Origin: a virus
Virus record (IMG/VR): IMGVR_UViG_3300045988_117710
DNA: 64,000 bases
Reading direction: 5' to 3' (one strand)
Position numbers and translations under genes: made by a program. Every line of letters starts with the position of its first letter. Positions within the stretch are counted from its first letter, which is position 1. Positions 2,830 through 22,969 of the stretch are shown one piece after another. The notes under the pieces were generated by a model. That model was not told the origin of the DNA and did not search any database. It worked only from the letters and a program-made list of their open reading frames with translations.

Positions 2830-2847
2830 TTTAGAGGAGAAATTTAT

Positions 2848-4239: not shown

Positions 4240-4266
4240 TTCAATAGGAGAAAAGGAGTTTAATTT

Positions 4267-6741: not shown

Positions 6742-6754
6742 TGAGGAGGATAAT

Positions 6755-8194
6755 ATGGTCACTATAGAAAGAGAAACATATTACACATTAGACGAAATTA
6801 ACTCATTGATTAGTAACGGTCAAGTTGCCGCTGCTAATCAATGGGAAGTTTACGAACTTTCTTATAATAGTGGTTTTAGTGTTGGTTGGAACCTGTGTAG
6901 AATGTTTGTCAATAAACATACTGGAGCAGTAACGGGTATTCTTGGAATGGAAGGAATGTCTGGAAGTTCTAATAATACTATATTGACTAATAGTAACCTA
7001 GGTATTCATGCAGATATGAAAATAAAATGGCCTGGATTACAAGTCTATACTACAACTACATCAGCAGCTTCTGCGGCTACTAAGAAAGCAGCTAGTCTGT
7101 TTAATATTAGAGTAGAAACAGATGGGACATTTATAGGTCAAGGTCATGGTTTTACTAGATCTGAGCTCGAGACACATATAGAGAATTTCTTCTATATAGG
7201 TTCTAAATATGGTAAGATTACAACTGAGGATGCTAAACCAATTTATCTTCCAGAAGGTACATTTTATAATAAAAATGCAGTTGACCTATTAACTGGTAAA
7301 GCTTGGTTTAAATATACGGTACCTTTAAACTCAGAAGCATACACAGATGACTCGAGTTTAACCTTTTATAAAAATCTATGGTCAGCTGAGTGTATAGTTC
7401 AATATGATTTAAAACCAGTTACAGCAAACACATATCCGAGTATAAGTGTTCCTAATAGATTCATGCCTTACTTAAATTTAACTTTATATCCAAAGATTAG
7501 ATACCTATCACCTGCTTCATCTAACACTCAAGCAAAAGAAAGATGCTATATAAGATTAGGTGGGAATGAGTTTTATCTAGGTGGTGTTCCTTCAGGTACA
7601 ACCAGAATTACAGGTTCTAACTTCTATATAGGAGTTGAAGAGGGAGCTATAGGATTAGATACAGAAACTGGAAAAGGTTTATGGAATAGAGATGCATCTG
7701 TTCAAGTACCTTCAGCTGAAAATACTGTTTTTGGTAATTTAAGAGATAACAACATTAGTCGTGTAGATATCACAGGAATGATTGTTAGTGGATATGTTAA
7801 AAGAGATGGATACCAATGTCATGTTATCAGATCGAGAACAGGAATGGTTAATTTTGCTGCAGCTATGAAAGTAAATAGTACAACATTAGCAGATCCATTA
7901 TTCAATAATTTCACAGCTGCTTGGAGACCAAGTTATAAATACAGGAGATCTACAATAACAGCATCTGGAGTACAAACAGTATATTTTGCTTCACCATCAT
8001 TTATGTCACTGGTAGTAGATACTACTCCTAGTCATAGATCGTATACAGCAAATATATGTTTAAGAACCAACCAAACTAGCGGTGGAGATGATGCGAAGAT
8101 AAAAGCACCGTCTTACGGTACTACTGGAAATATTTCACCAACTGTCGGTAATAATCTAATATGGCAAGGTTGGTATTTAGCAGATAATACATAG
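6755..8194 (+). CDS. putative receptor-binding/tail fibre protein (479 aa)
   Basis: GAGGAGG RBS 8 nt upstream; position after fibre genes. Confidence 0.6.
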   Translation: MVTIERETYYTLDEINSLISNGQVAAANQWEVYELSYNSGFSVGWNLCRMFVNKHTGAVTGILGMEGMSGSSNNTILTNSNLGIHADMKIKWPGLQVYTTTTSAASAATKKAASLFNIRVETDGTFIGQGHGFTRSELETHIENFFYIGSKYGKITTEDAKPIYLPEGTFYNKNAVDLLTGKAWFKYTVPLNSEAYTDDSSLTFYKNLWSAECIVQYDLKPVTANTYPSISVPNRFMPYLNLTLYPKIRYLSPASSNTQAKERCYIRLGGNEFYLGGVPSGTTRITGSNFYIGVEEGAIGLDTETGKGLWNRDASVQVPSAENTVFGNLRDNNISRVDITGMIVSGYVKRDGYQCHVIRSRTGMVNFAAAMKVNSTTLADPLFNNFTAAWRPSYKYRRSTITASGVQTVYFASPSFMSLVVDTTPSHRSYTANICLRTNQTSGGDDAKIKAPSYGTTGNISPTVGNNLIWQGWYLADNT

Positions 8195-9688: not shown

Positions 9689-10372
9689 ATGGTAGAGTTT
9701 ATTGATATCAATATTACTAATTTTGTATTTAGGAAGGTTATTCGAAGTTTATCAAAGTTGAAGAAAGCTGGTTACTGTGTTGATTTCCCTATTAAGGGCA
9801 ATACTACTATGAAGAATTTACTTTCTAGTGATTATACTTCTATGTATAAGAATGAGAATGGTTTATTCTTAAGGGTTTATGTAACTACTGCAGAGAATCC
9901 TTCTGAAGAAGATATAATGGAGATTTTAGATTTAGAAGAAGCTTCTAAAGCGAAGAATAGAGTATTACGTGCCAATAGCTTGAAGAATAAGTGTTCTTTA
10001 TGTGGTGTTGGTATTAAAGGAAATAGTCGCTTATATAATAAGGAAGTAGTTTGTGAGCTTTGTTTTGCTCGTAAACAGCTTGAAATTGCGGATTATATTA
10101 GTCAATGGGTTAGTTCTATGGGTGATGATATTAAATCGCTTGACAGTGTGCCAGAACTGGCTGACAGAGGGTTCTATATCACACGTGATGGTAAGATGTA
10201 TGGAACTAAGTATAGATCCAAGGGTAAGACTTTCTTGGAGTATCCAATCGAGAAGAAGGTAGTCATTCATGATAATGGATTGAGGATCTGTTGTCTATGT
10301 AGAGCTTTGGATGATAATAAGAAAAACCTTTACTATAATGTAGACAAATTGGTTAGTGAATTATTTGTTTAG
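9689..10372 (+). CDS. hypothetical protein with CxxC...CxxC zinc-ribbon (227 aa)
   Basis: GAGGTGA RBS; CSLCG / CELCF motifs. Confidence 0.55.
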   Translation: MVEFIDINITNFVFRKVIRSLSKLKKAGYCVDFPIKGNTTMKNLLSSDYTSMYKNENGLFLRVYVTTAENPSEEDIMEILDLEEASKAKNRVLRANSLKNKCSLCGVGIKGNSRLYNKEVVCELCFARKQLEIADYISQWVSSMGDDIKSLDSVPELADRGFYITRDGKMYGTKYRSKGKTFLEYPIEKKVVIHDNGLRICCLCRALDDNKKNLYYNVDKLVSELFV

Positions 10373-12258: not shown

Positions 12259-12466
12259 GAAGTTGTTTTGTAGACATCAATGGAGAGCTGTTCAGAAGAG
12301 AACTTCCAATCATTGTGATGATTATATTTACTTTTCAGATTTAGGGTTTTGGGATGATATCAAATATAAATGTGAGAAGTGTGGCAAGGAAAAGATTAAG
12401 ACTGTGGCAAATAGCAAACATCCTCTGTTACATGAATGGGAGGATTTAAATGACAAAGATAGATAA
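12245..12466 (+). CDS. zinc-ribbon protein (73 aa)
   Basis: GGTAGGTGG RBS; CRHQW...CEKCGKE. Confidence 0.45.
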   Translation: MSWIKKLFCRHQWRAVQKRTSNHCDDYIYFSDLGFWDDIKYKCEKCGKEKIKTVANSKHPLLHEWEDLNDKDR

Positions 12467-13010
12467 AGAGCTTTATAAGATTTATGATGAAGCTTGGAGA
12501 GTTTTAGATGATTATAAGGAAGAGCTGTTGAAGTATAATGATACTTCTAGCTTGAAGAAGGCAATGTATAATATTGATTCAGTTGTTGTTAATAGGAGAT
12601 GTAATTCTAGGAGAGGTTGTTGTAAGCATTTAGATGGTAATACTGTTAAGGTTGAGCTTTCTGGTTATATGTTATCTTTACCAGAGAAGGAAGCAGTTAC
12701 TACAATGGTTCATGAGCTTCTACATTGTTTTAGAGATTCACGTGGTCATAGAGGTCAATGGTTATGGAGAGCCAATTTGCTTAAGAGTAGAACTGGGTTG
12801 AATATTACTAGGGTGAGAACCATTGAGAATGAGTATGAGTTGAGAAAAGATTATTATGAACAACGAGCTAGGAATCAAAGAGAATATAATATAGTTTGTA
12901 GATGTAAGAATTGTGGTTATGAGATTCGTAGAAGTAGGGAGACACAATTCACGAAGCATCCAGAGTTTTATAAGCATCCACAGTGTGGTGGAACTTTTGA
13001 AAGGGTTTAG
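12450..13010 (+). CDS. SprT-like zinc metalloprotease with C-terminal zinc ribbon (186 aa)
   Basis: GGGAGG RBS; VHELLHCF (HExxH) preceded by SprT-like region; CRCKNCGY...CGG. Confidence 0.65.
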   Translation: MTKIDKELYKIYDEAWRVLDDYKEELLKYNDTSSLKKAMYNIDSVVVNRRCNSRRGCCKHLDGNTVKVELSGYMLSLPEKEAVTTMVHELLHCFRDSRGHRGQWLWRANLLKSRTGLNITRVRTIENEYELRKDYYEQRARNQREYNIVCRCKNCGYEIRRSRETQFTKHPEFYKHPQCGGTFERV

Positions 13011-13448: not shown

Positions 13449-13458
13449 GGTGGTTTTT

Positions 13459-14634
13459 ATGAAAGAGTTTGTTATTAAGAATGAACTTATGATGTTCATT
13501 GAGGAGCATGAGGATTGGAAGGTTCTATTAGCTTCTGATCCTTATAATCTAATTATTAAGGAAGATGAGGATTTTCCTAATGTTTATTTATTCAAGTATA
13601 ATATGTTAGAGTCTGATATGTATCAGAAGATTTCCCAAGAAGCGAGAGGTTTAATAGTTGAGGTTTCTGAAGTAGCTGGTAGACGTGTGACTAAGATGTT
13701 AGCACATTCTTTTGATAAGTTCTTTAACTATACTGAACCTCAAGGTGTTATGGTTCTAGAGAATTTCAATTGGGATAATTATAGTTTCCAAGAGAAGAGA
13801 GATGGATCTCTTATGAGATTGTGGTTCTATAAAGATAAGTGGGTTGTATCTAGTTCTGGTACTATTGATGCTCATAAAGCCAATATTCAGATTCCTAGTG
13901 TAGGTTATAATTCATTTGGTGATATGTTTGATGCTATTATTAAGAAGTATGATGTTGATTTTGATTCTTTAGATAAGGGGATAACTTATTCATTTGAGAT
14001 GACTTCACCAGACAATAAGATAGTAGTTGATTATGACTCTGATGAGCTTACTCTTATTGGTATGAGAGTTAACAAGTTGAATATGGAGCTTGATCCTATA
14101 TCTTTTAATCCATTTAAGGATATTAAGGTTGCTGAGAGATTTGAGTTTACTTCTCTTGATGATGCTTTATCTATTATTAATAATAGAACGAATTTTGAGG
14201 GCTTGGTTTTGGTTGATTCTAGTTTCAATCGTGTTAAGATTAAGACTGAGGAGTATTTAGCTTTAGCAAAGATGTCTGACATGGCAAGTTCTGATAGAGG
14301 TATCTTAAGGATGATTCTAGCTGGTACTATAGATGATGTTGCAAATCGATTACCACATTTACAACCACGAATTGATATCGTTAAGGGTTTTGTGGAATCA
14401 GAAATTACTAATATTAAGCAGTTGATTAGTACTGTTGATTTTACTCAAGATAGAAAGACAATTGCTCTATCAGTTAAGGATAGTCCTTATGCTAGGTTTG
14501 TATTTCCATTGATTTCTAATCCTGATCAGGATGTTATTGGAGCTTATTTTGTGTCTGATAACTTGGAGAAGATTTACAAATCTTATAAGGAAAGGTTCAA
14601 TTTAAGTGAAGAAACTGAAGAAGAAGTCATATAA
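13459..14634 (+). CDS. RNA ligase, T4 Rnl1-like (391 aa)
   Basis: GAGGTGG RBS; motif I QEKRDGSLM (KxDG nucleotidyl-Lys); upstream blocks EARGLIVE / FDKFFNYTE parallel T4 Rnl1 ECRGIMFE / MEKFFNLNE; size matches Rnl1. Confidence 0.7.
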   Translation: MKEFVIKNELMMFIEEHEDWKVLLASDPYNLIIKEDEDFPNVYLFKYNMLESDMYQKISQEARGLIVEVSEVAGRRVTKMLAHSFDKFFNYTEPQGVMVLENFNWDNYSFQEKRDGSLMRLWFYKDKWVVSSSGTIDAHKANIQIPSVGYNSFGDMFDAIIKKYDVDFDSLDKGITYSFEMTSPDNKIVVDYDSDELTLIGMRVNKLNMELDPISFNPFKDIKVAERFEFTSLDDALSIINNRTNFEGLVLVDSSFNRVKIKTEEYLALAKMSDMASSDRGILRMILAGTIDDVANRLPHLQPRIDIVKGFVESEITNIKQLISTVDFTQDRKTIALSVKDSPYARFVFPLISNPDQDVIGAYFVSDNLEKIYKSYKERFNLSEETEEEVI

Positions 14635-14650
14635 TAGTTGACTTCTTTTT
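14617..14650 (+). terminator. rho-independent terminator overlapping stop codon
   Basis: gaagaagtca...tgacttctt + TTTTTTG. Confidence 0.55.
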
Positions 14651-14666
14651 TGTTTTATCGTATAAT
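14638..14666 (+). promoter_or_regulatory. promoter TTGACT-17-TATAAT (TTTATCGTATAAT family), -35 inside terminator stem
   Basis: Consensus -35/-10 with 17-nt spacer. Confidence 0.6.
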
Positions 14667-14691
14667 AGAGACAATGAAAGAGGTGAATGTT

Positions 14692-15408
14692 ATGAAAGAC
14701 ATGCTTATGAATGAGTATAGTGTTTCAAAACTATTTGTTAAGAATAGTCCAACAAGTAGAATTAACAGCAGAGCGGATTTTGGTTATAAGGAAGAACATG
14801 TATGGGACATTGAGAAGTACCTATCTGATGAAGAGAAGTTAGAAATTATTGATTACCATACTGATGGGTTAGGTTCTTATATTCTAGATCTTATTAGAAA
14901 CTATCAAGTTGTAAGAGAGAATCCAGAGGTTCTTAAGAGAACAACTTATGGAGGGTTTAATAAGAATTCATTATTGAAGTGGTTGAATACAGCTGATCCT
15001 AGAAATGTATGTTCTAGAATTCTAACTCGTAGTTATCCTACTTATTGGATGTTCAAGAAGGAGTTTAGATTAACTGAGGATTGTCCTACAACTGACTATG
15101 GTTATAGGTTCTTATATACAGACCAACCTGTTGTTAGACAATGGTTTCATGATTTACTTAATAAGTTAAATAAGGAAGAGACTGAATGGTTTTTATTAAA
15201 TGATGAACATGAGGTTAAGATAAATAAGGTTAAGGATTTAGCTGATATTGTAGGGACTGACAATTTAAATAATCGTAAGTTATCTGACCTAGTTTGGAAT
15301 AATAAACGTGATGGTTTTACTGATGAAGAGTTGGATCGTTACATAGAAGTTTTAAGTGATATTGTTAATTATATGAATGAGAAGAAAGCTCAACTTGAGT
15401 TAATATAG
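14692..15408 (+). CDS. hypothetical protein (238 aa)
   Basis: AGAGGTGA RBS before ATG 14692; track start 14638 would read through terminator/promoter. Confidence 0.55.
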   Translation: MKDMLMNEYSVSKLFVKNSPTSRINSRADFGYKEEHVWDIEKYLSDEEKLEIIDYHTDGLGSYILDLIRNYQVVRENPEVLKRTTYGGFNKNSLLKWLNTADPRNVCSRILTRSYPTYWMFKKEFRLTEDCPTTDYGYRFLYTDQPVVRQWFHDLLNKLNKEETEWFLLNDEHEVKINKVKDLADIVGTDNLNNRKLSDLVWNNKRDGFTDEELDRYIEVLSDIVNYMNEKKAQLELI

Positions 15409-15420
15409 GAGGTAATGTAT

Positions 15421-15678
15421 ATGTCAAAAGTAAGTTTTATGTTAGGAAGTAATTTAGTATTTCAAATATCAAAGAGTAATTATATGTCTGCTAATCAGAT
15501 TGTGGATTTCTTAATGGAGCAAGGTTGTTTCACTCTTAAGAAAGACAATGTTATGAAGTCACTTGATAATATGTTATATTATGGTCGTGAGATTACAGCT
15601 GGTGAGTATGATTGTTTAACTGGTAAGGTTACATTAACAATCTCTGATGAGGTTTGGGAGGATCCATATGGATGTTAG
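15421..15678 (+). CDS. hypothetical protein (85 aa)
   Basis: TAGGAGGT RBS 9 nt upstream. Confidence 0.5.
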   Translation: MSKVSFMLGSNLVFQISKSNYMSANQIVDFLMEQGCFTLKKDNVMKSLDNMLYYGREITAGEYDCLTGKVTLTISDEVWEDPYGC

Positions 15679-15877
15679 AAGTTATACGAAGGATTTATTA
15701 AGGGAGCTTGGTGCTAAGGGATATATGATTGTCCCTTGCACACAAGAAGAGCAAGAGGAGATATTTACAACTTTGAGGTCTAATGGTAGATGTGCAAGAG
15801 CTGGTTATATCTATAATAAGGAACATGAGAAGATATTCTTTGTTCTAACAAAGAAGAGAAATAAGGTTGGTGCTTAG
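15668..15877 (+). CDS. hypothetical basic protein (69 aa)
   Basis: GGGAGGA RBS; overlaps previous gene by 11 nt. Confidence 0.45.
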   Translation: MDVRSYTKDLLRELGAKGYMIVPCTQEEQEEIFTTLRSNGRCARAGYIYNKEHEKIFFVLTKKRNKVGA

Positions 15878-15878
15878 T

Positions 15879-16370
15879 ATGATTAAGATTAAGTATGGTG
15901 ATTTGTTAGATGCAACGGAAGATGTAATCTGTCATCAATGTAATGTTCAAGGTATCTTTGGTGGAGGTTTAGCTGCTCAGATTGGTAAGAGATGGCCACA
16001 ATGTGCTTTCTCTACTGAAGGGTTCGCTGAAGTATTTGGTTCTGGTGTTCTAGGTATGGTTCATTATTGGAAGACTCCTGATGGTAGAACTGTTTGTAAT
16101 TGTTTTACTCAGAGGGAGGATTTCACTACTGATTATTGTTTTCTAGAGAAAGCTTTTACAGAGATTCTTACAATTTGTAAGGAGAGTAATCTTTCAGTAG
16201 CAGTACCATTTCAGTATGGTTGTGGTATAGCTCATGGTGATTGGAATCAGGTATTAGATATCTTTACTAGGTTATCTACTGATATTGGTGTTGATATTAA
16301 TGTTTATTATTTGAAGGGAAGTGTTCAAGATGCCTCTAATAGTGAAGGACAAATATTTGGAGAAGAATAG
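15879..16370 (+). CDS. macro-domain protein (ADP-ribose binding/hydrolase), about 163 aa
   Basis: IKIKYGDLLDATEDVICHQCNVQGIFGGGLAAQI matches macro N-terminal signature (GDIT...DAIVNAAN...GGGV). Confidence 0.65.
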   Translation: MIKIKYGDLLDATEDVICHQCNVQGIFGGGLAAQIGKRWPQCAFSTEGFAEVFGSGVLGMVHYWKTPDGRTVCNCFTQREDFTTDYCFLEKAFTEILTICKESNLSVAVPFQYGCGIAHGDWNQVLDIFTRLSTDIGVDINVYYLKGSVQDASNSEGQIFGEE

Positions 16371-16575
16371 TTGGGTTATAGGTGATTTACTAACTGCTAG
16401 AGAAATGATTGATGTTATTGTTAGAGATTTAGAATCTAATGGTAGAACTCATGTAGATTATGTTCTAGAGAAGTTAGAAAGAGCAGAGAATATTTTAAAT
16501 AATATTAATGGGTTATGTTTAAGAAATTCTAATAAAGGAGTGAAGAAAGATGAAGACACAAGTTCAAGTAATTAG
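16330..16575 (+). CDS. hypothetical protein (81 aa)
   Basis: GAAGGGAAG RBS. Confidence 0.45.
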   Translation: MPLIVKDKYLEKNSWVIGDLLTAREMIDVIVRDLESNGRTHVDYVLEKLERAENILNNINGLCLRNSNKGVKKDEDTSSSN

Positions 16576-16978
16576 GACCTATGATAGAAGTGTTTTTGAA
16601 AAACAACTATCTGAAGCTTATGCAAGTAAGGATGTAGTTAATGTTAATACTCATACCGAGTCTTATTTCAATGGAAGGGATTTAGTTATCTATTATATAG
16701 CAATTGTGTTCTATAAGGAGAATGTTGGTGAGATTGCTTTAGTGAATAGGTCTAAGTCAGATATTCTAGTTAGTAATTTAGGATTAAATTCTAGAGCTTA
16801 TGGTGTGTTGGTTAGACATAATAGACATATGACTCTTGGTGATCTTGTTGATTTAATAAGATCTGGTAGTATTTATAAGATGAAGAATATTGGTGGTACT
16901 ACTGTAACTCAAATTAAGGAGAGATTAGTTGAGTTAGGTTTAGTTAAGGAGGAGAGTTCAAATGGCAAAGATAGATGA
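16550..16978 (+). CDS. hypothetical protein (142 aa)
   Basis: AAAGGAGTGA RBS. Confidence 0.55.
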   Translation: MKTQVQVIRTYDRSVFEKQLSEAYASKDVVNVNTHTESYFNGRDLVIYYIAIVFYKENVGEIALVNRSKSDILVSNLGLNSRAYGVLVRHNRHMTLGDLVDLIRSGSIYKMKNIGGTTVTQIKERLVELGLVKEESSNGKDR

Positions 16979-17135
16979 GCTTAGAGAGATAGCGAAAGCA
17001 TATTGTAAGAAGATGGGTTATAAGTTTATATTCGCTAATGAATATAAGTTTGGTTTCGAGGATAAGCAAGGTGGTTTATGGACTTTAACTTATTTTGAAT
17101 TAGAATCTAAGTTGAAGGAAATGAATAATCAATAA
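16962..17135 (+). CDS. small ORF (57 aa), not in supplied track
   Basis: GGAGGAGAG RBS 7 nt before ATG; ends before the terminator cluster. Confidence 0.35.
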   Translation: MAKIDELREIAKAYCKKMGYKFIFANEYKFGFEDKQGGLWTLTYFELESKLKEMNNQ

Positions 17136-17147
17136 TATTGGGTAGGT

Positions 17148-17238
17148 TATTCGTATATTACAATGACAATTCTTTAGTTGTCATTTGTATGTCACGAGTA
17201 ACCCCATACTCAGTGAATAGCACTCTATACGAGTGCTT
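17148..17238 (+). ncRNA. candidate small RNA: TCGTATATTA promoter-like motif followed by two hairpins ending in a terminator
   Basis: attcgtatattacaat, then aatgacaa...ttgtcatt hairpin, then agcactc-tatac-gagtgct + TTTTTT. Confidence 0.3.
17212..17238 (+). terminator. rho-independent terminator
   Basis: agcactctatacgagtgct + TTTTTT. Confidence 0.65.
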
Positions 17239-17241
17239 TTT

Positions 17242-17254
17242 TCGTATTTAAATT
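17242..17254 (+). promoter_or_regulatory. TTCGTATTTAAAT promoter-like motif
   Basis: Family motif just after terminator, 13 nt before RBS of 17267 gene. Confidence 0.4.
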
Positions 17255-17266
17255 AAGGAGGTACCT

Positions 17267-18934
17267 ATGGTTAATGTTTTCTTTATTAGTGATTTACATC
17301 TTAATCATGGCAATATTATTGATTATTGTGATCGTCAGTTTAATAGTATTCAGGAGATGAATGATACTATTGTTAGGAATTGGAATAGTGTTGTAGGTCC
17401 AGATGATATAGTTTATTTTCTAGGTGATTTTGCTTTAGGTAGAGATGTAGATAAGGTTTATGAGGAGTATTCGAAGCTTCTGAATGGCACTATCTATTTC
17501 TTAAGAGGAAATCATGATAAGTCTAGATCTGTTGTATCTAGGTATTTTAATTTAATCGATACAGGTACGACTGTTTCTTATAATGATTCTCATTTCATTC
17601 TTTCCCATCATCCTTTATATGATTCAGAGATTCCTAAGGGATATGTTAATCTTCATGGTCATATTCACAATAACAAGTTGAGTAGGGTTTATGATTCTGG
17701 ATGTCATTTTAATGTTTCTGCTGATGTTACTGATTTCACACCATATTTCGTAAAGAATATTATAGATGATATTTCCTCTGGTTCTTTAGTTCCAAAGAGA
17801 ACTGGGGTTGATAGAGTTAGGAAGGATGATGGTAGTATGAGAAAGTTAGCTACAGTGCAAACTATTTTAAATGTTGAACCTATACCTGATGCTGATGCAA
17901 TTGAGGTTGTTACAGTTAAGGGTTGGAAGGTTGTTGTAAAGAAGGGTGAGTATCAAGTTGGTGATAAGGTAGTTTATTTCGAAATTGATTCACTTATTCC
18001 AAGAAGTTCAATAACAGAGTTTTTGATGGAAGATGAGTATATGTTGTCTGCTAGATTAAGAACTAGAAAATTAAGAGGTCAAGTATCTCAAGGTTTAGTT
18101 ATTTCTTTAGAAGATTCTCTTGTTATGGCTGAAGAGTTAAATGGTGCTGTTGAGTTATTTGATACTGATGATGGTACAGATGTTTCTGATTTACTTCATG
18201 TTGAGAAGTATGAACCACCTGTTACTTATGGTAACGAGGGTAGATGTGTTGCTTGGCCATTTACATTGACTAAAACTGATGAAGAGAGAATTCAAAATAT
18301 TCCTGAAGTTATTGATAAGTTGATCGAGAATGGAACTCATTTATGTATTTCAGTTAAGTTAGATGGTACTTCTATGACTGTAGTACATCAACCAGATGGT
18401 ATTCATGTAGCTGGTAGAAACAATGATTTTGATAAGACAGATGATTTTGCTTTCAATAATAAGTATTGGTCTACAGCTCGAAGATATGGTGTTACAGATG
18501 CTTTAGAAGAAGCCCATATAAATAATCCAGACAAATACTTTGCTGTTCAAGGTGAGTTAGTTGGTCCTGGTATTCAAGGTAATAAGATGAATTTATCAGA
18601 TTTGAATTATTATATCTTTAACTTATTTGTTTCTGAAGATGAATGCAGAACTTGGAAGAAGTTAGGTTATGAAGAATTAGTTCAGTTCTGTATTGATTAT
18701 GATCTTACTCATGTTCCTTATATTTATTCAGATTTCGAATTGAAGGCACATGGTTTAGTAGATGTTGATAGTATTCTTAAGTTTGCGGAAGGTACTTATA
18801 GAGATAATGCCGAGGGTTATTTCCCAAATGCTAAAGCCAATCAACAAAGAGAGGGGTTAGTGTTTAGAACTCTTGATCATCAATTCTCTTTTAAGGTTGT
18901 TAATAATATCTTCTTACTTAAGGGAGGAGAATAA
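17267..18934 (+). CDS. fusion of calcineurin-type metallophosphoesterase (N) and polynucleotide ligase-like nucleotidyltransferase (C); candidate RNA-repair healing/sealing enzyme (555 aa)
   Basis: AAGGAGG RBS; N: FISDLHLNHG / LGDFALGRD / RGNHD phosphoesterase motifs; C: SVKLDGTSM (motif I KxDG), VQGELVG (III), REGLVFR (IV). Confidence 0.7.
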   Translation: MVNVFFISDLHLNHGNIIDYCDRQFNSIQEMNDTIVRNWNSVVGPDDIVYFLGDFALGRDVDKVYEEYSKLLNGTIYFLRGNHDKSRSVVSRYFNLIDTGTTVSYNDSHFILSHHPLYDSEIPKGYVNLHGHIHNNKLSRVYDSGCHFNVSADVTDFTPYFVKNIIDDISSGSLVPKRTGVDRVRKDDGSMRKLATVQTILNVEPIPDADAIEVVTVKGWKVVVKKGEYQVGDKVVYFEIDSLIPRSSITEFLMEDEYMLSARLRTRKLRGQVSQGLVISLEDSLVMAEELNGAVELFDTDDGTDVSDLLHVEKYEPPVTYGNEGRCVAWPFTLTKTDEERIQNIPEVIDKLIENGTHLCISVKLDGTSMTVVHQPDGIHVAGRNNDFDKTDDFAFNNKYWSTARRYGVTDALEEAHINNPDKYFAVQGELVGPGIQGNKMNLSDLNYYIFNLFVSEDECRTWKKLGYEELVQFCIDYDLTHVPYIYSDFELKAHGLVDVDSILKFAEGTYRDNAEGYFPNAKANQQREGLVFRTLDHQFSFKVVNNIFLLKGGE

Positions 18935-18935
18935 T

Positions 18936-19730
18936 ATGAAGTATTTATTTCACTTCGCTATGATGAAGGAGTGTCCTACTGAGTTTATTAAGTTACCAGA
19001 AGGTGTACATGATGATTTAAGTGGAGATGATATTGTAGGTTTATTTGATACCATTTATCCTAATATTAAGTTTTGGGTTTCTGGTGTTGGATGCAATAAT
19101 GTCCTTTATCCTGATTATGAAGTGGTTAATTATCTTAAGACTTGTGATTATGTTTATAGTTTTGGTTTATCTGGTTCTATTAATGATAATCTTAAAGTTG
19201 GAGATTTGGTTAATGTTCATAGTGTTAATAATCTAGATGTTAAGATGCCTGGGTATGGATTAGGTTGTACTGATGATTTTGATGCAGATTGTTTAGGTTG
19301 TTCAAAGTCTAATCTTACAGCTTTATCTGATTTTAATACTAGGGTTATCTGTTATACTTCTAATCGATTTGTTACGAAGGAGTATTTAGATTTCTTATTT
19401 GGTGATAATTCTGATGATAATTTAGATGATTTCTATGATGATGCTTTTAATGTAGCATTTGATGAGAATGTGATTACTTCTTTAGCTTTAGGTTTTATTG
19501 ATGAACCAAAGAAAGATTGTATAGTTTGTGAGATGGAACTATTCTATCTTAAGAAGTTTGTTGATATTATTAATAAGTCTTGTCCTGTATGTGCTTATAA
19601 GTTAGTTTCTGATATAGTATGTAAACCTGATAATTATGAAGAGTATGAAGGTTCTTTACAAACTCTATTATCTAGTTTACATTTTGCTGTAGGAGCTGCT
19701 GTTAAGGAGTTAGGTTCAGATGGAGAATAG
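18936..19730 (+). CDS. PNP/UDP-family nucleosidase-like protein (MTA/SAH nucleosidase-like), 264 aa
   Basis: GGGAGGAG RBS before ATG 18936; FGLSGSINDNLKVGDLVNVHSV resembles MTAN TGSAGGL..LKVGDVVI; C-terminal EMELF resembles MTAN EMES; assignment tentative. Confidence 0.45.
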   Translation: MKYLFHFAMMKECPTEFIKLPEGVHDDLSGDDIVGLFDTIYPNIKFWVSGVGCNNVLYPDYEVVNYLKTCDYVYSFGLSGSINDNLKVGDLVNVHSVNNLDVKMPGYGLGCTDDFDADCLGCSKSNLTALSDFNTRVICYTSNRFVTKEYLDFLFGDNSDDNLDDFYDDAFNVAFDENVITSLALGFIDEPKKDCIVCEMELFYLKKFVDIINKSCPVCAYKLVSDIVCKPDNYEEYEGSLQTLLSSLHFAVGAAVKELGSDGE

Positions 19731-19731
19731 T

Positions 19732-20220
19732 ATGAAGGTTCAGTTAGCAGATATTACTTTTGATTCATGTGTAGATGGTCCTGGGTTAAGAACTGTTGTG
19801 TGGTTGTCTGGGTGTTCTCATAGATGTCCAGAGTGTCATAATGAACGTTTACAGGATTTCCATTATGGTTATTCCATGGATGTTAATGAGTTAGTTGATA
19901 CTTTATCTAGTTCGAAGAGGATAACTTTCTCTGGTGGTGATCCATTGTTTCAAGTGAATGCTTTAGATGAGATTATTGGTTCTCTTGATCCAGAGACAGA
20001 CATTTGGATTTATACTGGTTTTACTTTAGATAAAGCCAAGGAGATTCTGATGGATAAGCCAAATCTTAGAGAGTCTGAATTTACTATTAAGTGTGGTAAG
20101 TTTGATAAGAGTCTTAAGGATCCTAGTTGTAAGTTTAGGGGTTCTAGTAATCAAAGGATTTATCATTATATTAATGGTATCTTTACTGATATCTCTGACA
20201 AGATTGATAATAGAAAATAA
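19732..20220 (+). CDS. NrdG-like radical-SAM activating enzyme (anaerobic RNR / glycyl-radical activase family), about 162 aa
   Basis: SCVDGPGLRTVVWLSGCSHRCPECHN matches the NrdG GCxxxCxxCxN signature and size. Confidence 0.65.
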   Translation: MKVQLADITFDSCVDGPGLRTVVWLSGCSHRCPECHNERLQDFHYGYSMDVNELVDTLSSSKRITFSGGDPLFQVNALDEIIGSLDPETDIWIYTGFTLDKAKEILMDKPNLRESEFTIKCGKFDKSLKDPSCKFRGSSNQRIYHYINGIFTDISDKIDNRK

Positions 20221-20221
20221 G

Positions 20222-20247
20222 GGAAAGTTTAGTTGACTTTCCTTTTT
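20222..20247 (+). terminator. rho-independent terminator
   Basis: ggaaagt-ttagttg-actttcc + TTTTTATTT. Confidence 0.6.
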
Positions 20248-20264
20248 ATTTATCGTATTATAAT
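20233..20264 (+). promoter_or_regulatory. promoter TTGACT-17-TATTAT(AAT) (TTTATCGTATTATAAT family)
   Basis: -35 embedded in terminator stem; conserved TCGTAT motif. Confidence 0.55.
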
Positions 20265-20279
20265 ATAGAGGTGAATGGT

Positions 20280-20528
20280 ATGTATTCTCATAATTATAAA
20301 GGTTTACCTTATAAGCAAAGTGTTAAGCGATTTGAGAAGGATTATCGTATTAGATATTGTTTGTATGGTAAGTATTCCAAATGGAGAACTGCTTCTGGGA
20401 AGAAGATTCGAGTTAAGGATTTAGATTATCACCATTTAATTAATATTGTTAATTATTTTGGGAATACAAAGATTCGAAATGATTATCCATTTGTTTGGTA
20501 TAGATATGTGAAAGAGGTGGTATTGTGA
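20280..20528 (+). CDS. hypothetical basic protein (82 aa)
   Basis: AGAGGTGA RBS. Confidence 0.5.
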   Translation: MYSHNYKGLPYKQSVKRFEKDYRIRYCLYGKYSKWRTASGKKIRVKDLDYHHLINIVNYFGNTKIRNDYPFVWYRYVKEVVL

Positions 20529-21565
20529 AGAAGTTCACAGCAACAGTTTTAATGGGTTATCCTGGTTCTGGTAAGACTAGAGCAAGTTCTTATAAGCATT
20601 TAAGAACTAATGATGCTTTATATCTATCTTCTGATGATTTAAGAGTAGAGATGTTTGGTTTCAGAGATCAGGAGCATAATAAGGAGTTATTCGAAGAGTT
20701 ATATAAGAGAGCAATCAATTATTCTGATAAGGGAGATGTTTTAATTGATTCTACAGCTCTTACTAGAAAAGATAGATTGAGGGTTATTGCAAAGCTTGGT
20801 AAGTACTTCAATATGAGATTAGTAGTAGTTGTCAGACCTATTTGGGAGATTGTGGAGGAGAATCAAATCAGAAAGGTTTCTAAACCTGAAGAGTATATTC
20901 CTGAACCAATCTTTAAACAGATTCTTGGTAGATTTCAATTACCTACTTATGATGAGGGTTGGGATGAGATTAGTTTTTGTTTCAATTCTTCTATTGAAGA
21001 ACATAATGATCCTAATCTATTATTAAAATGTTTTTATGATTTAGATAAGGTTGAAGATATTGCACATGATAATCCACATCATCCAGAGTCAATCAAGGAA
21101 CATGTTAATTATGTTTTAGGTAAGGTTAAGGAAGAGACATCAAGTTTTGTATTAGAGTCTATTGCTTATTATCATGATTTAGGTAAATTTTATGTTATTC
21201 AGTATAATGAAGAGAAAGGATATTCTCAATGTATTGGTCATGCAGCTGTTTCAGCTTATATCTATTTGACAGATTTCTTGATTAGGGCTGTTTTAGATTC
21301 TATTGAGAAAGATGACTTTACTAATCCTTTTAGTAATTTAGAGTTTCTTTTAATTTATTATGGAGTGTTCTATCATGATTATCCTTATTCATTTACTGAT
21401 TTTGAAGATATGGTTAGTTCTTTAAGTAAACCTAGTAAACCATTGATTCATTTATTTAAAAATCTTAATGATGGTTTAGTTGGTATTTCTATGAGAGAGT
21501 TTACAAGAATGTTAATAGATTTTAATTGTTATGATAGAATGAGGGAAGGTGATTCAGATGAATGA
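20525..21565 (+). CDS. P-loop polynucleotide-kinase-like domain fused to HD phosphohydrolase domain (346 aa)
   Basis: Walker A MGYPGSGKT; HD motifs HHPESIKEHV ... YYHDLGK; GTG start with GAGGTGG RBS. Confidence 0.65.
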   Translation: MKKFTATVLMGYPGSGKTRASSYKHLRTNDALYLSSDDLRVEMFGFRDQEHNKELFEELYKRAINYSDKGDVLIDSTALTRKDRLRVIAKLGKYFNMRLVVVVRPIWEIVEENQIRKVSKPEEYIPEPIFKQILGRFQLPTYDEGWDEISFCFNSSIEEHNDPNLLLKCFYDLDKVEDIAHDNPHHPESIKEHVNYVLGKVKEETSSFVLESIAYYHDLGKFYVIQYNEEKGYSQCIGHAAVSAYIYLTDFLIRAVLDSIEKDDFTNPFSNLEFLLIYYGVFYHDYPYSFTDFEDMVSSLSKPSKPLIHLFKNLNDGLVGISMREFTRMLIDFNCYDRMREGDSDE

Positions 21566-22358
21566 GAGTATTCTGAAGGCATTAGATATTCTTGAGTCTA
21601 GAGGATATAATGTAGTTTATTTAGGATATTATGGTGCTCATAATTATAATCTTAATGATGAGCAATCTGATTATGATTTTAAAGCCATTGTTATTCCTAC
21701 TCTTAAGCAGTTGATTAAGAGAGATGTTATTTCAACTACTATTGAGTGTGAGTTTGGTAATATTGATGTTAAGGATTTACTTACATTTACAACTAATATG
21801 AATAAGGGAAACTTTAGTTATATTGAGTCTTTACATTCTAATTACTTTTTAGACTTTGGAGAAGCTTTTCTAGGAATTTCTATTAGGGATTTGTTTAAGG
21901 ATGTTAAGGTTAATTGGATGTCTATGGTTGGTGCTATTTATGAGAAGAGAAAAGCTCTTACTCATGAGTATCCTAGTAAAACTGCAGAGTTTGAGAAGTT
22001 TGGTTGCGATCCTAAACAGTTCTTACAAGCAATTCGTTTGTTTGATATTCTTCGTAGAAGAAGTAAGGATGTTGAGAATTATAATAAGTCATTTGAGACT
22101 TATTCAGATGATGGAGTTCAGTTTGAGTTAGTTGAATTTGAATCTGAAGCAAGTAGTAGAAAGTATGAGTTTTCTCATCAGGATTTAATTGCTATGAAGA
22201 GAGGTTTATTAATGCCTCTAGATGAGACTATTAGAATATTTGATTATATTCAAGTTAAGGCAAGAGATTATATTTCTAAAGATTATAAGTTTGAACCTTT
22301 AGATTATACTGATGAGGTTATTGACTTATTAGTGACTTATTTTAAGAACAATTTATAG
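21558..22358 (+). CDS. Pol-beta-superfamily nucleotidyltransferase-like protein (266 aa)
   Basis: GGAAGG RBS; YLGYYGAHNYNLNDEQSDYDFKAIV resembles the hG[GS]x9-13DhD NTase motif; tentative. Confidence 0.45.
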   Translation: MNESILKALDILESRGYNVVYLGYYGAHNYNLNDEQSDYDFKAIVIPTLKQLIKRDVISTTIECEFGNIDVKDLLTFTTNMNKGNFSYIESLHSNYFLDFGEAFLGISIRDLFKDVKVNWMSMVGAIYEKRKALTHEYPSKTAEFEKFGCDPKQFLQAIRLFDILRRRSKDVENYNKSFETYSDDGVQFELVEFESEASSRKYEFSHQDLIAMKRGLLMPLDETIRIFDYIQVKARDYISKDYKFEPLDYTDEVIDLLVTYFKNNL

Positions 22359-22366
22359 GAGGATTT

Positions 22367-22969
22367 ATGTTAAAGATAGGATTTGTTGGTGCACCACAAA
22401 GTGGTAAGTCTAGTTTGATTGAGTATTTGAGAAATTTATTAAAGGATGAGTATCAAGTGGTTATTGCTGATGAGCCACCAACAATTCTTTTGAAGGTAGG
22501 GTTGGATCCTGCATCTGGAGTTATTTCTAGTTTGGATTTTCAGAAGGAGTGTTTATTAGAGTATCATAATGTTTATGAGAGAATTTCGAAGTATTCTAGT
22601 GTTTATTCTAACTCTGATAAACCTACAATTGTTTTAATGGATACTTTACCAGAGATTGGGAAGTGTTATCTTAATGATGAAGAGACTAAGGTGTGGGAAG
22701 AGCATTACAATCTTTTCTGGAGAAATAATGTTGTGTTTGAAACTTTCAAACCAGATATTATATTCAATCTTGAGTTATTACAAGGAGAGTTTTCTACTAA
22801 GGGTAATGCTGTTCGTAGAGACTTAGATGTTGAGTATATTCTTTCTATTGATGAGAAGATTTGCAATACTTATCCTTCTGCTATTAGATTAGCAAATGAT
22901 ATTGGTATCGAAGAAAGAGCCAATGAAGTAGCAGATATTATTGATTCTGCTTTAAGAAATCAAAATTAA
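22367..22969 (+). CDS. P-loop NTPase/kinase (200 aa)
   Basis: TAGGAGG RBS; Walker A GAPQSGKSS; LMDT Walker-B-like. Confidence 0.55.
   Translation: MLKIGFVGAPQSGKSSLIEYLRNLLKDEYQVVIADEPPTILLKVGLDPASGVISSLDFQKECLLEYHNVYERISKYSSVYSNSDKPTIVLMDTLPEIGKCYLNDEETKVWEEHYNLFWRNNVVFETFKPDIIFNLELLQGEFSTKGNAVRRDLDVEYILSIDEKICNTYPSAIRLANDIGIEERANEVADIIDSALRNQN

Follow-up and report, generated by a model that had tools for sequence, protein, structure and literature searches.

A predicted RNA break-repair module with a phosphoesterase–RNA ligase fusion in an uncultured large phage

Do the RNA-processing genes clustered in a large phage genome make up one pathway for the repair of cut RNA, and what damage would such a pathway serve? 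The question is raised by a 64,000-nucleotide stretch of viral DNA (IMG/VR record IMGVR_UViG_3300045988_117710; hereafter the window), in which a preliminary description made from the letters alone had recognized an RNA end-healing and sealing toolkit. Family matches and gene neighbourhoods in distant phages support this description. Between positions 13459 and 22358, on the + strand, the window encodes four intact enzymes: an Rnl1-family ligase, a fusion of a metallophosphoesterase (MPP) with an Rnl5 ligase, a kinase–HD protein (PNK-HD), and an RlaP-type nucleotidyltransferase (NTase). The kit ORFs all lie on the + strand at the positions first assigned to them, with profile matches far beyond chance, and their catalytic motifs are all intact and invariant across relatives. 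The source is thus described as an uncultured large phage with a predicted full enzyme set for cleaning and rejoining cut RNA. Kits of this type are already familiar from other phages; the unusual feature here is a phosphatase fused to an RNA ligase.

Components of the locus

The features of the locus are as follows.

13459..14634, +, Rnl1-family ATP-dependent RNA ligase (Pfam, PHROG, T4 Rnl1 structure)
17219..17237, +, terminator-like hairpin with a T-run (consensus scan, pattern match only)
17267..17779, +, small binuclear metallophosphoesterase domain, aq_1665 type, fusion aa 1–171 (Metallophos, phrog_547, 1xm7)
17780..17836, +, 19-aa linker, fusion aa 172–190 (compared with the unfused locus L004)
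17837..18934, +, complete Rnl5-family (DraRnl/NgrRnl-type) RNA ligase, fusion aa 191–555 (TIGR02306, NgrRnl 5cot, Pfam)
20219..20245, +, terminator-like hairpin with an 11-bp stem (consensus scan, pattern match only)
20525..21565, +, PNK-HD, candidate bifunctional end-healing protein, 346 aa (AAA_33, motifs)
21558..22358, +, divergent RlaP-type Pol-beta NTase (phrog_388, RlaP profiles, motifs, AF2 model)
22367..22969, +, Walker A ORF (GAPQSGKS), 200 aa (weak AAA_28 match only, 0.0063)
32055–33431, ATP-dependent DNA ligase, separate from the kit

The first ORF is open from GTG 13450 (394 aa); its likely start is ATG 13459, preceded by GAGGTGG and giving 391 aa. The product matched Pfam RNA_lig_T4_1 (PF09511; 4.1e-18, 66.5 bits, cut-off 28.3), phrog_562 (2.6e-49, spanning aa 38–366), and the T4 Rnl1 structure 2c5u (4.9e-11), in which T4 K99 is the counterpart of motif I; these matches confirmed the earlier Rnl1-like assignment as membership of the Rnl1 family. 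Numbered from GTG 13450, the motifs are K116 (motif I, KRDGS), R66, K90/F92 (DKFFN), E183 (SFEM), E250-G251 (FEGLV), and K263/K265 (VKIK). The score with TIGR02308, the T4 RnlA equivalog, was 77.8, far below the cut-off of 242.

The ORF at 17267–18934 (555 aa) combines a small aq_1665-type MPP with a complete Rnl5. The MPP domain matched Pfam Metallophos (5.4e-9, aa 4–140) and the phosphoesterase family phrog_547 (2.2e-45), and its family profile aligned over the full length with PDB 1xm7, Aquifex aq_1665 of unknown function (1.8e-21). All five motifs are invariant (D9-x-H11, G53-D54, G81-N82-H83-D84, H114, H130-G131-H132-x-H134). A weak match to the ligase-associated DNA-damage phosphoesterase PdeM was obtained (2.4e-4), and the domain gave no sequence match to Clostridium thermocellum Pnkp or lambda-type phosphatases. 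We propose that it may heal 2',3'-cyclic or 3'-phosphate ends.

The ligase part has an N-terminal OB domain (aa 194–280; PHA02142 OB domain PF21189, 1.1e-28) and a C-terminal adenylyltransferase domain (aa 359–545; RNA_ligase PF09414, 2e-21). It matched phrog_968 RNA ligase (5.8e-70), TIGR02306 (DRB0094 RNA ligase; 171.5 bits, above the cut-off of 151.15), and NgrRnl 5cot (1.1e-50, query 191–552 to residues 4–336 of 340; 6.4e-59 with the family profile). The motifs, invariant in 16 relatives, are K364-L-D-G (motif I), Q428-G-E430, R528-E-G-L-V, and F542-K543. The match to Deinococcus DraRnl and Naegleria NgrRnl is full-length (OB plus adenylyltransferase) with all ligase motifs conserved, whereas the window ligase bears a fused N-terminal MPP. 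All the motif strings quoted in the preliminary description (KRDG, KLDGTS, GEL, EGLV) are present, and the C-terminus it had read as a second KxDG ligase is indeed an RNA ligase and not a DNA ligase, the latter being encoded separately; the assignment can be sharpened to the nick-sealing Rnl5 family (DraRnl/NgrRnl). Enzymes of this family seal nicks with a 3'-OH RNA strand (PMC4408790, PMC5397189), and the two ligases therefore probably serve different break geometries.

The origin of the fusion is suggested by locus L004, in which MPP and Rnl5 are encoded side by side by two genes with the junction TGA-AGGAGGA-ATTTGAT-ATG (9985–10003). The ligase start MRKL of L004 aligns with M191-R-K-L of the fusion. 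The linker takes the place of the stop codon and intergenic spacer and retains the Shine-Dalgarno-like AGGAAGGA, ~11 nt ahead of the Met191 codon at 17837. As judged from this alignment, the fusion is derived from neighbouring MPP and Rnl5 genes by loss of the stop codon and spacer. It is rare, as had been supposed: among 1.84 billion cluster representatives one cluster, that of the phage's own clade, spans both halves, and no cultured phage record does among 50,697 phage records.

PNK-HD has an N-terminal P-loop domain of the 5'-OH polynucleotide kinase type (aa 1–~160; G11-x-P-G-x-G-K17, S36-D37-x-x-R40, D75, R84, R116) and a C-terminal HD phosphohydrolase domain (aa ~175–346; H181-D-N-P-H-H186, H193, H217-D218-x-G-K, H239, H284-D285, D337). 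With an AAA_33 match of 5.6e-11 and the motifs of both domains, the protein is of the kind first described. For the window sequence alone the HD domain scored 17.7 bits, below the Pfam threshold of 22. The closest relatives of the kinase domain are RNA/tRNA kinases (Pnkp1, CthPnkp, PSTK, T4 Pnk). The two candidates for 3'-end healing, HD and MPP, appear redundant.

The NTase ORF is open from GTG 21549; its relatives begin at ATG 21558, with an 8-nt overlap with the PNK-HD stop. Numbered from GTG 21549, the motifs are G29, S40-D41-x-D43, and D73, followed by a helical C-terminal domain. The NTase matched phrog_388 (6.5e-12), its GxxxY...SDxD...D motifs are invariant, and the AF2 model (pLDDT 94.9) has the NTase fold, so that the Pol-beta NTase noted earlier is present and can be refined to a divergent RlaP. 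With Pfam RlaP (PF10127) it fell short of the 23-bit cut-off at 18.7 bits, yet 20 of the 25 family members match RlaP. The family aligned by hhalign with the RlaP of phage LC76P1, itself above the cut-off (99.8%, 1.5e-29), and with T4 NrdC.11 (73.9%, 2.8e-5). No solved structure matched by sequence; the best Foldseek matches, HalB and KNTase, were generic NTases at TM of about 0.4–0.5. No other protein of the kit is as well conserved as the NTase, with 70–80% identity across the clade.

The Walker A ORF had been counted as the last P-loop member of the kit. It is real and occurs in the near-identical contig L012, but in L001, L002, and L004 it does not follow the NTase, which makes its membership doubtful; no PHROG or NCBIfam match and no informative PDB match was found.

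Unrelated genes (macrodomain, NrdG-like, others) and the two hairpins interrupt the kit, and co-expression is therefore not established. The hairpin at 17219..17237, 30 nt upstream of the fusion gene start, may mark a boundary between Rnl1-containing and fusion-containing units; that at 20219..20245, directly 3' of the NrdG-like gene, may mark one ahead of the PNK-HD/NTase unit.

Recurrence in phages and comparison with known systems

Within the clade the order Rnl1 ... MPP(+)Rnl5 – NrdG-like – PNK-HD – NTase is kept at 48–80% protein identity. Since whole genomes are collinear, this synteny is weak evidence on its own. A kinase-seeded survey of IMG/VR yielded 80 loci, grouped into 26 clusters at 50% identity. 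Rnl1 or Rnl5 was found ≤10 kb from the kinase in 19 clusters, mostly abutting or overlapping, and the NTase in 7/26; the same small MPP adjoins Rnl1/PNK-HD or Rnl5 in nine of the 26 independent clusters. Contiguous arrangements include MPP-Rnl1-PNK-HD and NTase-PNK-HD-MPP-Rnl5. Among cultured phages, Lysinibacillus phage LC76P1 carries Rnl5-RlaP-PNK-HD consecutively, and in Bacillus phage Sophrita, which has one more RNA ligase in its genome, Rnl1 overlaps PNK-HD (29% identical to that of the window, E 5e-30). Per-genome base rates are low: 2053 of 50,697 phage records match the fusion query, 55 the kinase-HD, and 32 the NTase. The kinase-HD pairing, previously thought unusual, proved not to be so in phages (70/80 IMG/VR relatives, as well as cultured Bacillus and Lysinibacillus phages). 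Because this linkage (26 IMG/VR clusters, LC76P1, Sophrita) exceeds local synteny, the locus can be described as one maximal form, and the fullest known, of an RNA heal-and-seal module that recurs in large phages of Bacillota-like hosts as Rnl1 and/or Rnl5 plus PNK-HD, with or without MPP and RlaP. LC76P1 and Sophrita/Tsamsa (Joanripponvirinae) share with the window consecutive or overlapping ligase and PNK-HD genes but lack the five domains together and the MPP-Rnl5 fusion; we found no experimental studies of their modules in the searched literature.

The domain logic of T4 Pnkp/Rnl1 and bacterial Pnkp/Hen1 in another arrangement, as first suggested, is borne out by comparison. T4 likewise encodes a 5' kinase, a 3' phosphoesterase, and an Rnl1-family ligase, and its genome also includes a second, nick-sealing ligase (Rnl2) and an RlaP-family NTase (NrdC.11). 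The catalytic motifs of the Rnl1 ligases can be aligned, the kinases share the D-x-x-R signature after the P-loop, and NrdG, RlaP, and a macrodomain (Tk.4) lie within 20 kb in T4. The 3' phosphatase of T4 Pnkp, however, is a HAD domain, whereas here an HD domain and an extra MPP occur; the nick-sealing ligase is Rnl5 and not Rnl2, and T4 has no phosphoesterase-ligase fusion. The window NTase shares the core G-[SA]-x-x-Y...SDxDxK with NrdC.11 but is very divergent and shorter (266 vs 336 aa). Like other RlaP proteins (PF10127; Pseudomonas PfRlaP/PaRlaP, NrdC.11), it is a Pol-beta NTase beside RNA-repair ligases and kinases (PMC12776372).

T4 Pnkp/Rnl1 tRNA repair and Runella slithyformis HD-Pnk are biochemical precedents (PMC6097658). 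The latter (Munir and Shuman, 2017, via PMC6097658) also joins an HD 2',3'-phosphoesterase to a P-loop 5'-OH kinase and is encoded beside a ligase; compared by description only, its domain order is reversed, the kinase being N-terminal and HD C-terminal here. Its bacterial gene cluster also contains Tpt1 and an MTase-HIT protein; no counterpart of either was seen in the window. In contrast to C. thermocellum Pnkp/Hen1 and Capnocytophaga Pnkp1/Rnl/Hen1, the kinase here is on a separate, HD-fused protein, the MPP, of the small aq_1665 type, does not match the CthPnkp phosphatase in sequence, and the ligase belongs to the Rnl5 family, its OB domain being N-terminal; the scanned ORFs included no Hen1 methyltransferase.

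Proposed repair pathway and alternative readings

We regard a four-enzyme phage RNA heal-and-seal module as the probable function of the locus, and we infer each step from the families of the enzymes and their genomic surroundings. Host ribotoxins triggered by infection (anticodon nucleases, other metal-independent RNases) would cut tRNA and possibly rRNA, leaving 2',3'-cyclic-phosphate and 5'-OH ends. The PNK-HD kinase would phosphorylate the 5'-OH, and its HD domain would strip the 2',3'-cyclic or 3'-phosphate. After excision of 3'-side nucleotides (RloC-type damage), the NTase might restore one or two NMPs; the RlaP family was recently shown to extend broken RNA 3' ends by 1–2 NMPs and is required for recovery of tRNA function after excessive damage (PMC12776372). 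Breaks in single-stranded loops, e.g., the anticodon loop, would be sealed by the Rnl1-family ligase. Nicks in base-paired RNA would fall to the fusion, with the MPP cleaning the 3' end and handing it over to the nick-sealing ligase of the same polypeptide. Comparative genomics had earlier led to the prediction of phage kits that combine RlaP with phosphatases of the calcineurin-like or HD type (PMC7824862). Host nucleases that attack tRNA or rRNA are the probable target of the module, and an anti-anticodon-nuclease role can reasonably be inferred.

Repair of nicks in DNA metabolism seems unlikely, although it has several points in its favour. MPP-Rnl5 would heal and seal phage DNA nicks with a ribonucleotide-ended 3' strand (primer remnants, embedded rNMPs, or 3'-P/5'-OH breaks left by host nucleases), and PNK-HD would supply the 5' phosphate. 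DNA repair after irradiation is the sole physiological role demonstrated for an Rnl5 enzyme, and the only in vivo phenotype comes from Deinococcus, which becomes sensitive to radiation and reassembles its genome late; Rnl5 tolerates DNA as the 5'-PO4 strand and as the template, and the authors allow for a role of Rnl2/Rnl5 in the repair of DNA, of RNA, or of both (PMC5397189). The weak PdeM match and the surrounding genes of nucleotide and DNA metabolism (NrdG-like, DNA ligase, SbcCD-like) are of the same tendency. The recurrent partners, however, act specifically on RNA: Rnl1 lies directly beside PNK-HD in many lineages, RNA is the only substrate class of RlaP (PMC12776372), and the kinase is nearest to RNA/tRNA kinases. 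The phage also has its own DNA ligase, and RNA ligases are therefore not needed for replication.

It is improbable that the proteins act in separate functions and share only an early/middle accessory region. Rnl1 would then be a tail-fibre attachment factor like T4 gp63, as the phrog_562 annotation ("RNA ligase and tail fiber protein attachment catalyst") allows; the MPP would degrade signalling nucleotides, as proposed for phage calcineurin-like phosphodiesterases and cyclic-nucleotide signals (PMC7824862); and the NTase would have some unrelated role, for instance to modify a small molecule or to make or mimic a nucleotide signal, its nearest solved folds being HalB, the NTase of the Hailong defence system, and aminoglycoside NTases. 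The region is indeed divided by unrelated genes and terminator-like sites. Yet the same components adjoin, often with stop/start overlap, in many unrelated phage lineages, the physical fusion of MPP to a ligase favours nucleic-acid end processing, and the HalB/KNTase matches are low-TM and generic, whereas sequence profiles point to RlaP.

No tRNA genes or Rfam RNAs were found in the 64-kb window, and thus no substrate is indicated. Processing of the phage's own RNAs instead of host-toxin damage (transcript ligation or circularisation, maturation of tRNAs encoded elsewhere in the roughly 190-kb genome, phage-RNase damage during host shut-off) is the least probable reading: related contigs of 180–197 kb could hold tRNA genes or RNases outside the window, and in other systems RNA ligases take part in splicing and editing (PMC6097658, PMC5397189), but against it stand the lack of tRNA genes and known RNA families in the 64 kb, the preference of RlaP for damaged RNA 3' ends (PMC12776372), and the established counter-defence precedent of phage Pnkp and Rnl1 (PMC12776372, PMC7824862).

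Nearby counter-defence candidates are the macrodomain at 15867–16370 and a Tad3-like Thoeris inhibitor at 28357–28842.

Genes of the putative RNA-repair kit

The four genes of the putative RNA-repair kit span positions 13459–22358 of the window. All proteins named in the preliminary description were found, and the domain assignments of the kit proteins are close to certain:

13450/13459–14634, + strand: Rnl1-family RNA ligase (PF09511, phrog_562, T4 Rnl1 crystal structures)
17267–18934, + strand: MPP-Rnl5 fusion, 555 aa; small metallophosphoesterase (MPP) with Metallophos domain (aa 4–140), PHA02142 OB domain (aa 194–280), RNA_ligase domain PF09414 (aa 359–545)
20525–21565, + strand: PNK-HD, 346 aa; AAA_33 kinase domain (aa 1–160), HD domain (aa 175–346)
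21549/21558–22358, + strand: Pol-beta nucleotidyltransferase, NTase (phrog_388, 6.5e-12; invariant catalytic residues; AF2 model)

Residues of the first and last proteins are numbered from the GTG codons at 13450 and 21549. The window is AT-rich (~32% GC), with nearly all genes on the + strand and with tail, baseplate, and lysis genes downstream; its source is a large uncultured tailed phage, and near-identical and related metagenomic contigs reach 181–197 kb. In a Megablast search with the 10-kb region, none of 50,697 phage records matched, so the phage is considered to be without a close cultured relative. Neither tRNA genes (ARAGORN) nor Rfam families at the gathering threshold were detected in the window, and thus nothing points to an RNA substrate or guide. 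A promoter scan of the window was uninformative (61 sites vs. 68.5 expected).

The first ORF matched PF09511 (RNA_lig_T4_1) over the full profile (positions 1–227; aa 64–269 of the protein) with 66.5 bits against a gathering score of 28.3 (E = 4.1e-18), phrog_562 with 2.6e-49, and T4 Rnl1 crystal structures with 4.9e-11. The Pfam score and the alignment of the nucleophile K116 (KRDGS) to K99 of the T4 enzyme bear out the earlier placement of the ORF in the Rnl1 family. RGL66, DKFFN89, SFEM181, FEGLV249, and VKIK262 were also present, so that the protein has motifs I, III, IV, and V as well as the Rnl1-specific N-terminal Arg and Lys/Phe, as judged against the essential residues of T4 Rnl1. With the T4 RnlA equivalog model TIGR02308 it scored 77.8 bits, far under the cut-off of 242.25, and it is therefore regarded as a member of the Rnl1 family and not as an orthologue of proven tRNA specificity. 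Neither the equivalog score nor the PDB alignment, which ended at aa 298 of 394, revealed the C-terminal tRNA-specificity domain of T4 RnlA; the PHROG profile alone reached aa 366.

Residues 191–555 of the fusion form a complete Rnl5-family ligase, which passed the cut-off of TIGR02306 (171.5 bits vs. 151.15) and matched the OB domain PF21189 (1.1e-28) and the ligase domain PF09414 (2e-21). The match to Naegleria NgrRnl was 1.1e-50 over residues 4–336 of 340 of that enzyme, and 6.4e-59 with the family profile. The domain order typical of Rnl5, with the OB domain at the N-terminus and the adenylyltransferase domain at the C-terminus, was confirmed. The second ligase proposed at 17267 is real: by TIGR02306, PF09414, and NgrRnl, the C-terminal half is an Rnl5 RNA ligase. 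The MPP domain matched phrog_547 (2.2e-45), and its family profile covered Aquifex aq_1665 from end to end (1xm7; 1.8e-21), a structural-genomics protein of unknown function. Across 16 relatives, all ligase motifs (K364-L-D-G, G429-E430, E529-G530, and K543, which align to the NgrRnl motifs) were invariant, and so were the five motifs of the metallophosphoesterase. Rnl5 enzymes seal 3'-OH/5'-PO4 nicks only with an RNA 3'-OH strand and depend on Mn2+ (PMC4408790, PMC5397189). Their physiological role has been termed 'uncharted', and the sole physiological data point toward DNA repair (PMC5397189).

PNK-HD consists of a P-loop 5'-OH polynucleotide-kinase domain with the catalytic Asp and Arg of T4-type Pnkp kinases and of an all-helical domain of the HD superfamily (PF01966) with an H...HD...D metal-binding motif. 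The kinase family profile matched L-seryl-tRNA(Sec) kinase (1.2e-11), Pnkp1 of the Pnkp1/Rnl/Hen1 complex (1.8e-11), the kinase domain of C. thermocellum Pnkp (5.3e-10), and T4 Pnk (5.8e-5). T4 Pnkp has a C-terminal HAD (DxDxT) 3'-phosphatase, whereas PNK-HD has the HD fold and HD motifs instead; it is therefore not a member of the T4 Pnkp family, and in function it may be similar to T4 Pnkp. Runella HD-Pnk likewise combines an HD phosphoesterase with a P-loop kinase in one polypeptide, but in the reverse order, with HD N-terminal and kinase C-terminal as described in PMC6097658. This enzyme is the sole characterised one among HD/kinase pairings.

Residues G29, D41-x-D43, and D73 of the NTase are invariant in its family, and the AF2 model (pLDDT 94.9) had structural neighbours of the NTase fold. 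With PF10127 (RlaP) the window protein scored 18.7 bits against a gathering score of 23; RlaP was matched by 20 of the 25 NTase family members (best 7.3e-6), and the homologue from Lysinibacillus phage LC76P1 passed the cut-off (28.3 bits). The family profile matched LC76P1 RlaP at 99.8% (E = 1.5e-29) and, over the catalytic core, T4 NrdC.11 (73.9% probability, E = 2.8e-5), which is classed as RlaP (PMC12776372). The window NTase is probably a divergent RlaP relative, its own score being under the Pfam cut-off. RlaP attaches 1–2 NMPs to the 3'-OH end of damaged RNA, and tRNA requires it to regain function once damage has removed nucleotides (PMC12776372). The family profile had no match among PDB sequences, and Foldseek with the model returned only the generic NTases HalB and KNTase (TM ~0.4–0.5); since these matches are generic, a HalB-like signalling or decoy role was dropped as unsupported.

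Distribution and origin of the MPP-Rnl5 fusion

The Metallophos-OB-ligase architecture was recovered by word-indexed search in 24 clusters of 56–99% identity, all metagenomic. By HMMER against 1.84 billion 50%-identity representatives, both halves were covered by exactly one protein, P0024, the representative of the clade formed by the window phage and its close metagenomic relatives; the remaining top matches were stand-alone Rnl5 ligases or one stand-alone MPP of 177 aa. None of the 50,697 cultured phage records covered at least 80% of the fusion. In the databases searched, the architecture is confined to the window's clade and is new. Three N-terminally extended Rnl5 proteins (P0404, P0411, and P0295) were considered as further fusions and rejected, since no Pfam domain was found in the extensions and they are thus not independent MPP fusions. 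The Rnl5 genes of cultured Pseudomonas, Limnohabitans, and Synechococcus phages had no annotated phosphoesterase neighbour.

In the related contig L004, MPP (202 aa) and Rnl5 (357 aa) are encoded by separate adjacent genes with the spacer TGA-AGGAGGA-ATTTGAT-ATG (9985–10003). The fusion has a 19-aa linker at the position of this stop codon and spacer, and its Met191 was aligned to the start of the free-standing ligase. The linker sequence (window 17800–17839) retains the Shine-Dalgarno-like AGGAAGGA ~11 nt upstream of the Met191 codon, a relic of the ribosome-binding site of a once-separate ligase gene. The fusion therefore arose by loss of the stop codon between neighbours. It is conceivable that internal initiation at Met191 gives free Rnl5 beside the fusion. 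L004 is the only clear unfused case; P0025 was rejected as a second unfused ligase because its contigs break off 19–60 nt upstream, where the reading frame is still open.

Gene linkage and the proposed repair pathway

The order Rnl1 ... MPP(+)Rnl5–NrdG-like–PNK-HD–NTase was found in all contigs of the clade with enough flanking sequence (L001, L002/L003, L004, L010, L012, and L014). Because these genomes are collinear, synteny within the clade is weak evidence. Linkage was therefore assessed by an IMG/VR scan seeded on relatives of the kinase, which gave 80 loci with 25–50% identity. Six-frame ORFs of these loci were searched with HMMs from our own alignments, and clustering of the loci at 50% identity of the kinase left 26 clusters, for which raw counts are given below.

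An Rnl1 or Rnl5 gene was located within 10 kb of the kinase in 19 of the 26 clusters, usually abutting or overlapping it. The same small MPP was present in nine clusters and the NTase in seven, typically overlapping the kinase start; in the window and in these seven independent clusters, the NTase gene adjoins or overlaps PNK-HD, with ligases near. MPP-Rnl1-PNK-HD were contiguous in a cluster of 20 loci, and NTase-PNK-HD-MPP-Rnl5 in L028/L029, where MPP is 4 nt from Rnl5. The kinase-HD pairing, called unusual in the preliminary description, is not so in phages, as both domains share one ORF in 70 of the 80 loci. Among the clusters examined, the window's clade has the fullest set, with all five domains, and is the sole holder of the fusion.

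Cultured phages showed similar linkage. In LC76P1, an Rnl5-type ligase, RlaP, and PNK-HD are consecutive genes. In Bacillus phage Sophrita, which also encodes another RNA ligase, the stop codon of an Rnl1-type ligase overlaps the start of PNK-HD (29% identity to the window PNK-HD over both domains, E = 5e-30). Per-genome base rates of the kit genes in phages are low: out of 50,697 phage records, 2053 were matched by either half of the fusion, 55 by PNK-HD, and 32 by the NTase.

RNA repair as a phage counter-defence is an established idea, and to our knowledge it has been demonstrated in vivo for the T4 system only. We consider it fairly probable that the kit forms an RNA-repair module. The mechanism proposed for it is modelled on T4 Pnkp/Rnl1, on Runella HD-Pnk, and on bacterial Pnkp/Hen1 (PMC6097658, PMC12776372), and it agrees with predictions for phage RNA-repair kits (PMC7824862). 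[quoted passage not shown] The likely purpose would be to undo infection-triggered cleavage of host tRNA or rRNA; this anti-ribotoxin role, proposed by analogy, is the uncertain step of the RNA-repair reading. The HD and MPP domains look redundant. Bacterial Pnkp/Hen1 has kinase, metallophosphoesterase, and ligase in one polypeptide together with the 2'-O-methyltransferase Hen1, whereas in the window the kinase is on a separate protein from the MPP-ligase. Among the ~50 window ORFs of at least 60 aa that were scanned, none matched an RNA methyltransferase, and the one methylase identified was a C5 DNA methylase.

A wider proposal, which we regard as rather doubtful, is that MPP-Rnl5 is a self-contained heal-and-seal enzyme, in which the aq_1665-type MPP would be a third class of RNA 3'-end healer channelling cleaned ends into Rnl5. 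Together with PNK-HD and RlaP, it would then give the phage a full pathway against ribotoxins that excise nucleotides ('smart' ribotoxins, among them RloC), and the widespread Rnl5 ligases would have their first physiological role in RNA repair.

The concept and every domain family of the kit are already known. Phage RNA-repair kits have been predicted by comparative genomics, in which RlaP and occasional calcineurin-like and HD phosphatases were already noted (PMC7824862). The MPP-Rnl5 fusion, the recurrent recruitment of aq_1665-type MPP into putative RNA-repair modules, and the co-occurrence of the five domains are new. Phage genomes commonly have the putative kinase-HD end-healing enzyme as a hub, to which Rnl1, Rnl5, RlaP, and an uncharacterised small metallophosphoesterase are added in many different combinations, and in one phage clade the phosphoesterase has been welded to the Rnl5 ligase. 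The locus reveals no new principle; the kit mainly offers well-defined candidates with which the functions of Rnl5 ligases and aq_1665-type phosphoesterases could be assigned, and a compact heal-and-seal enzyme could possibly be used as a reagent.

Two further arrangements were observed. In a large group of ~120-kb viral contigs (L017 8054–10936, L021–L027, and others), MPP, Rnl1, and PNK-HD form a tight triad whose gene ends overlap; in the loci examined, the aq_1665-type phosphoesterase occurs most often in this setting. All genes in region 1202–6981 of LC76P1 are annotated as 'hypothetical'; they include a NAMPT-like nicotinamide phosphoribosyltransferase together with the Rnl5-type ligase, RlaP, and PNK-HD. 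Judging by its predicted domains, this region is an unannotated RNA-repair module beside a NAD-salvage gene.

Neighbouring genes and sequence elements

The following features were located within and around the kit:

15867–16370, + strand: macrodomain protein, 167 aa (phrog_335, 3.3e-27; DarG-like NF048014, 8.7e-8)
16550–16978, + strand: RpoA-CTD-like ORF, 142 aa (PF03118, 1.4e-4, just under the cut-off; NCBIfam rpoA models, 1e-5)
17219–17237, + strand: terminator-like hairpin, GC-rich with a T-run, 30 nt before the fusion start codon (pattern match only)
19720–20220, + strand: NrdG-like radical-SAM activase (Fer4_12, 8.1e-29; TIGR02491, 113 bits vs. cut-off 126)
20219–20245: terminator-like hairpin (pattern match only)
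22367–22969, + strand: P-loop ORF, 200 aa, with a Walker A motif and nothing else assignable
28357–28842, + strand: Tad3-like ORF, 161 aa (Pfam Tad3, type I Thoeris inhibitor, 2.2e-20; 73 bits vs. cut-off 27)
32055–33431, + strand: ATP-dependent DNA ligase, separate from the RNA ligases (PF01068, 3.1e-22)

The trailing P-loop ORF, counted in the toolkit by the preliminary description, does exist and has its Walker A motif, but it is absent downstream of the NTase in the related contigs L001, L002, and L004. This ORF, a 256-aa ORF after Rnl1, and a 285-aa ORF after the fusion were not accepted as kit members, since the searches gave none of them an assignment and they are not conserved in related loci. 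In the interval between the fusion and the NrdG-like gene, the ORF of 265–285 aa (18873/18933–19730, + strand) gave faint nucleoside phosphorylase matches (PNP_UDP_1, 0.0092; HpnG, 0.0032); the near-identical contig L012 has this ORF as well, and more distant relatives lack it.

The NrdG-like gene is always located between the Rnl5 gene and PNK-HD throughout the clade (L001 11866–12375, L002 11674–12168, L004 11077–11568, L010 1353–1841, and L012 3259–3759). No connection between this gene and RNA repair is evident. NrdD, the large subunit of anaerobic ribonucleotide reductase, had no match among the window ORFs scanned.

The macrodomain gene lies inside the kit span, was missing from the preliminary list, and is not conserved in L001, L002, and L004. 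Its PDB matches were 5e3b (7.5e-6), DarG 5m3i (1.3e-5), and the yeast ADP-ribose-1''-phosphate phosphatase 6lft (4e-5). The protein could undo ADP-ribosylation brought about by host toxins, or it could act on the ADP-ribose phosphates that NAD-dependent RNA repair leaves as by-products. T4 has the macrodomain Tk.4, RlaP NrdC.11, and NrdG within 20 kb, and the window has counterparts of these. The macrodomain and the Tad3-like Thoeris inhibitor are other counter-defence candidates near the kit, the latter being a candidate anti-Thoeris gene ~5 kb downstream.

The ORF at 16550–16978 has a C-terminal helix-hairpin-helix region like the CTD of the RNA polymerase alpha subunit and is not conserved in L001, L002, and L004; it may be a transcription-takeover factor. 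A small ORF of ~57 aa (16962–17135, + strand), under the 60-aa listing limit, is found within the apparent 289-nt gap before the fusion. The hairpin at 17219–17237 could act as a terminator; with a promoter upstream of it, it could instead be a structure of the 5'-UTR. As terminators, the two hairpins would split the span in three: Rnl1 and others; the fusion to NrdG; and PNK-HD, NTase, and P-loop. Further + strand genes at 30440–31243, 33666–34724, 38041–39201, and 12450–13010 comprise a second, larger metallophosphoesterase and, beside it, an SbcC-like ATPase (AAA_23), as well as a C5 cytosine DNA methyltransferase (6e-55) and an SprT-like metalloprotease (4.7e-5).
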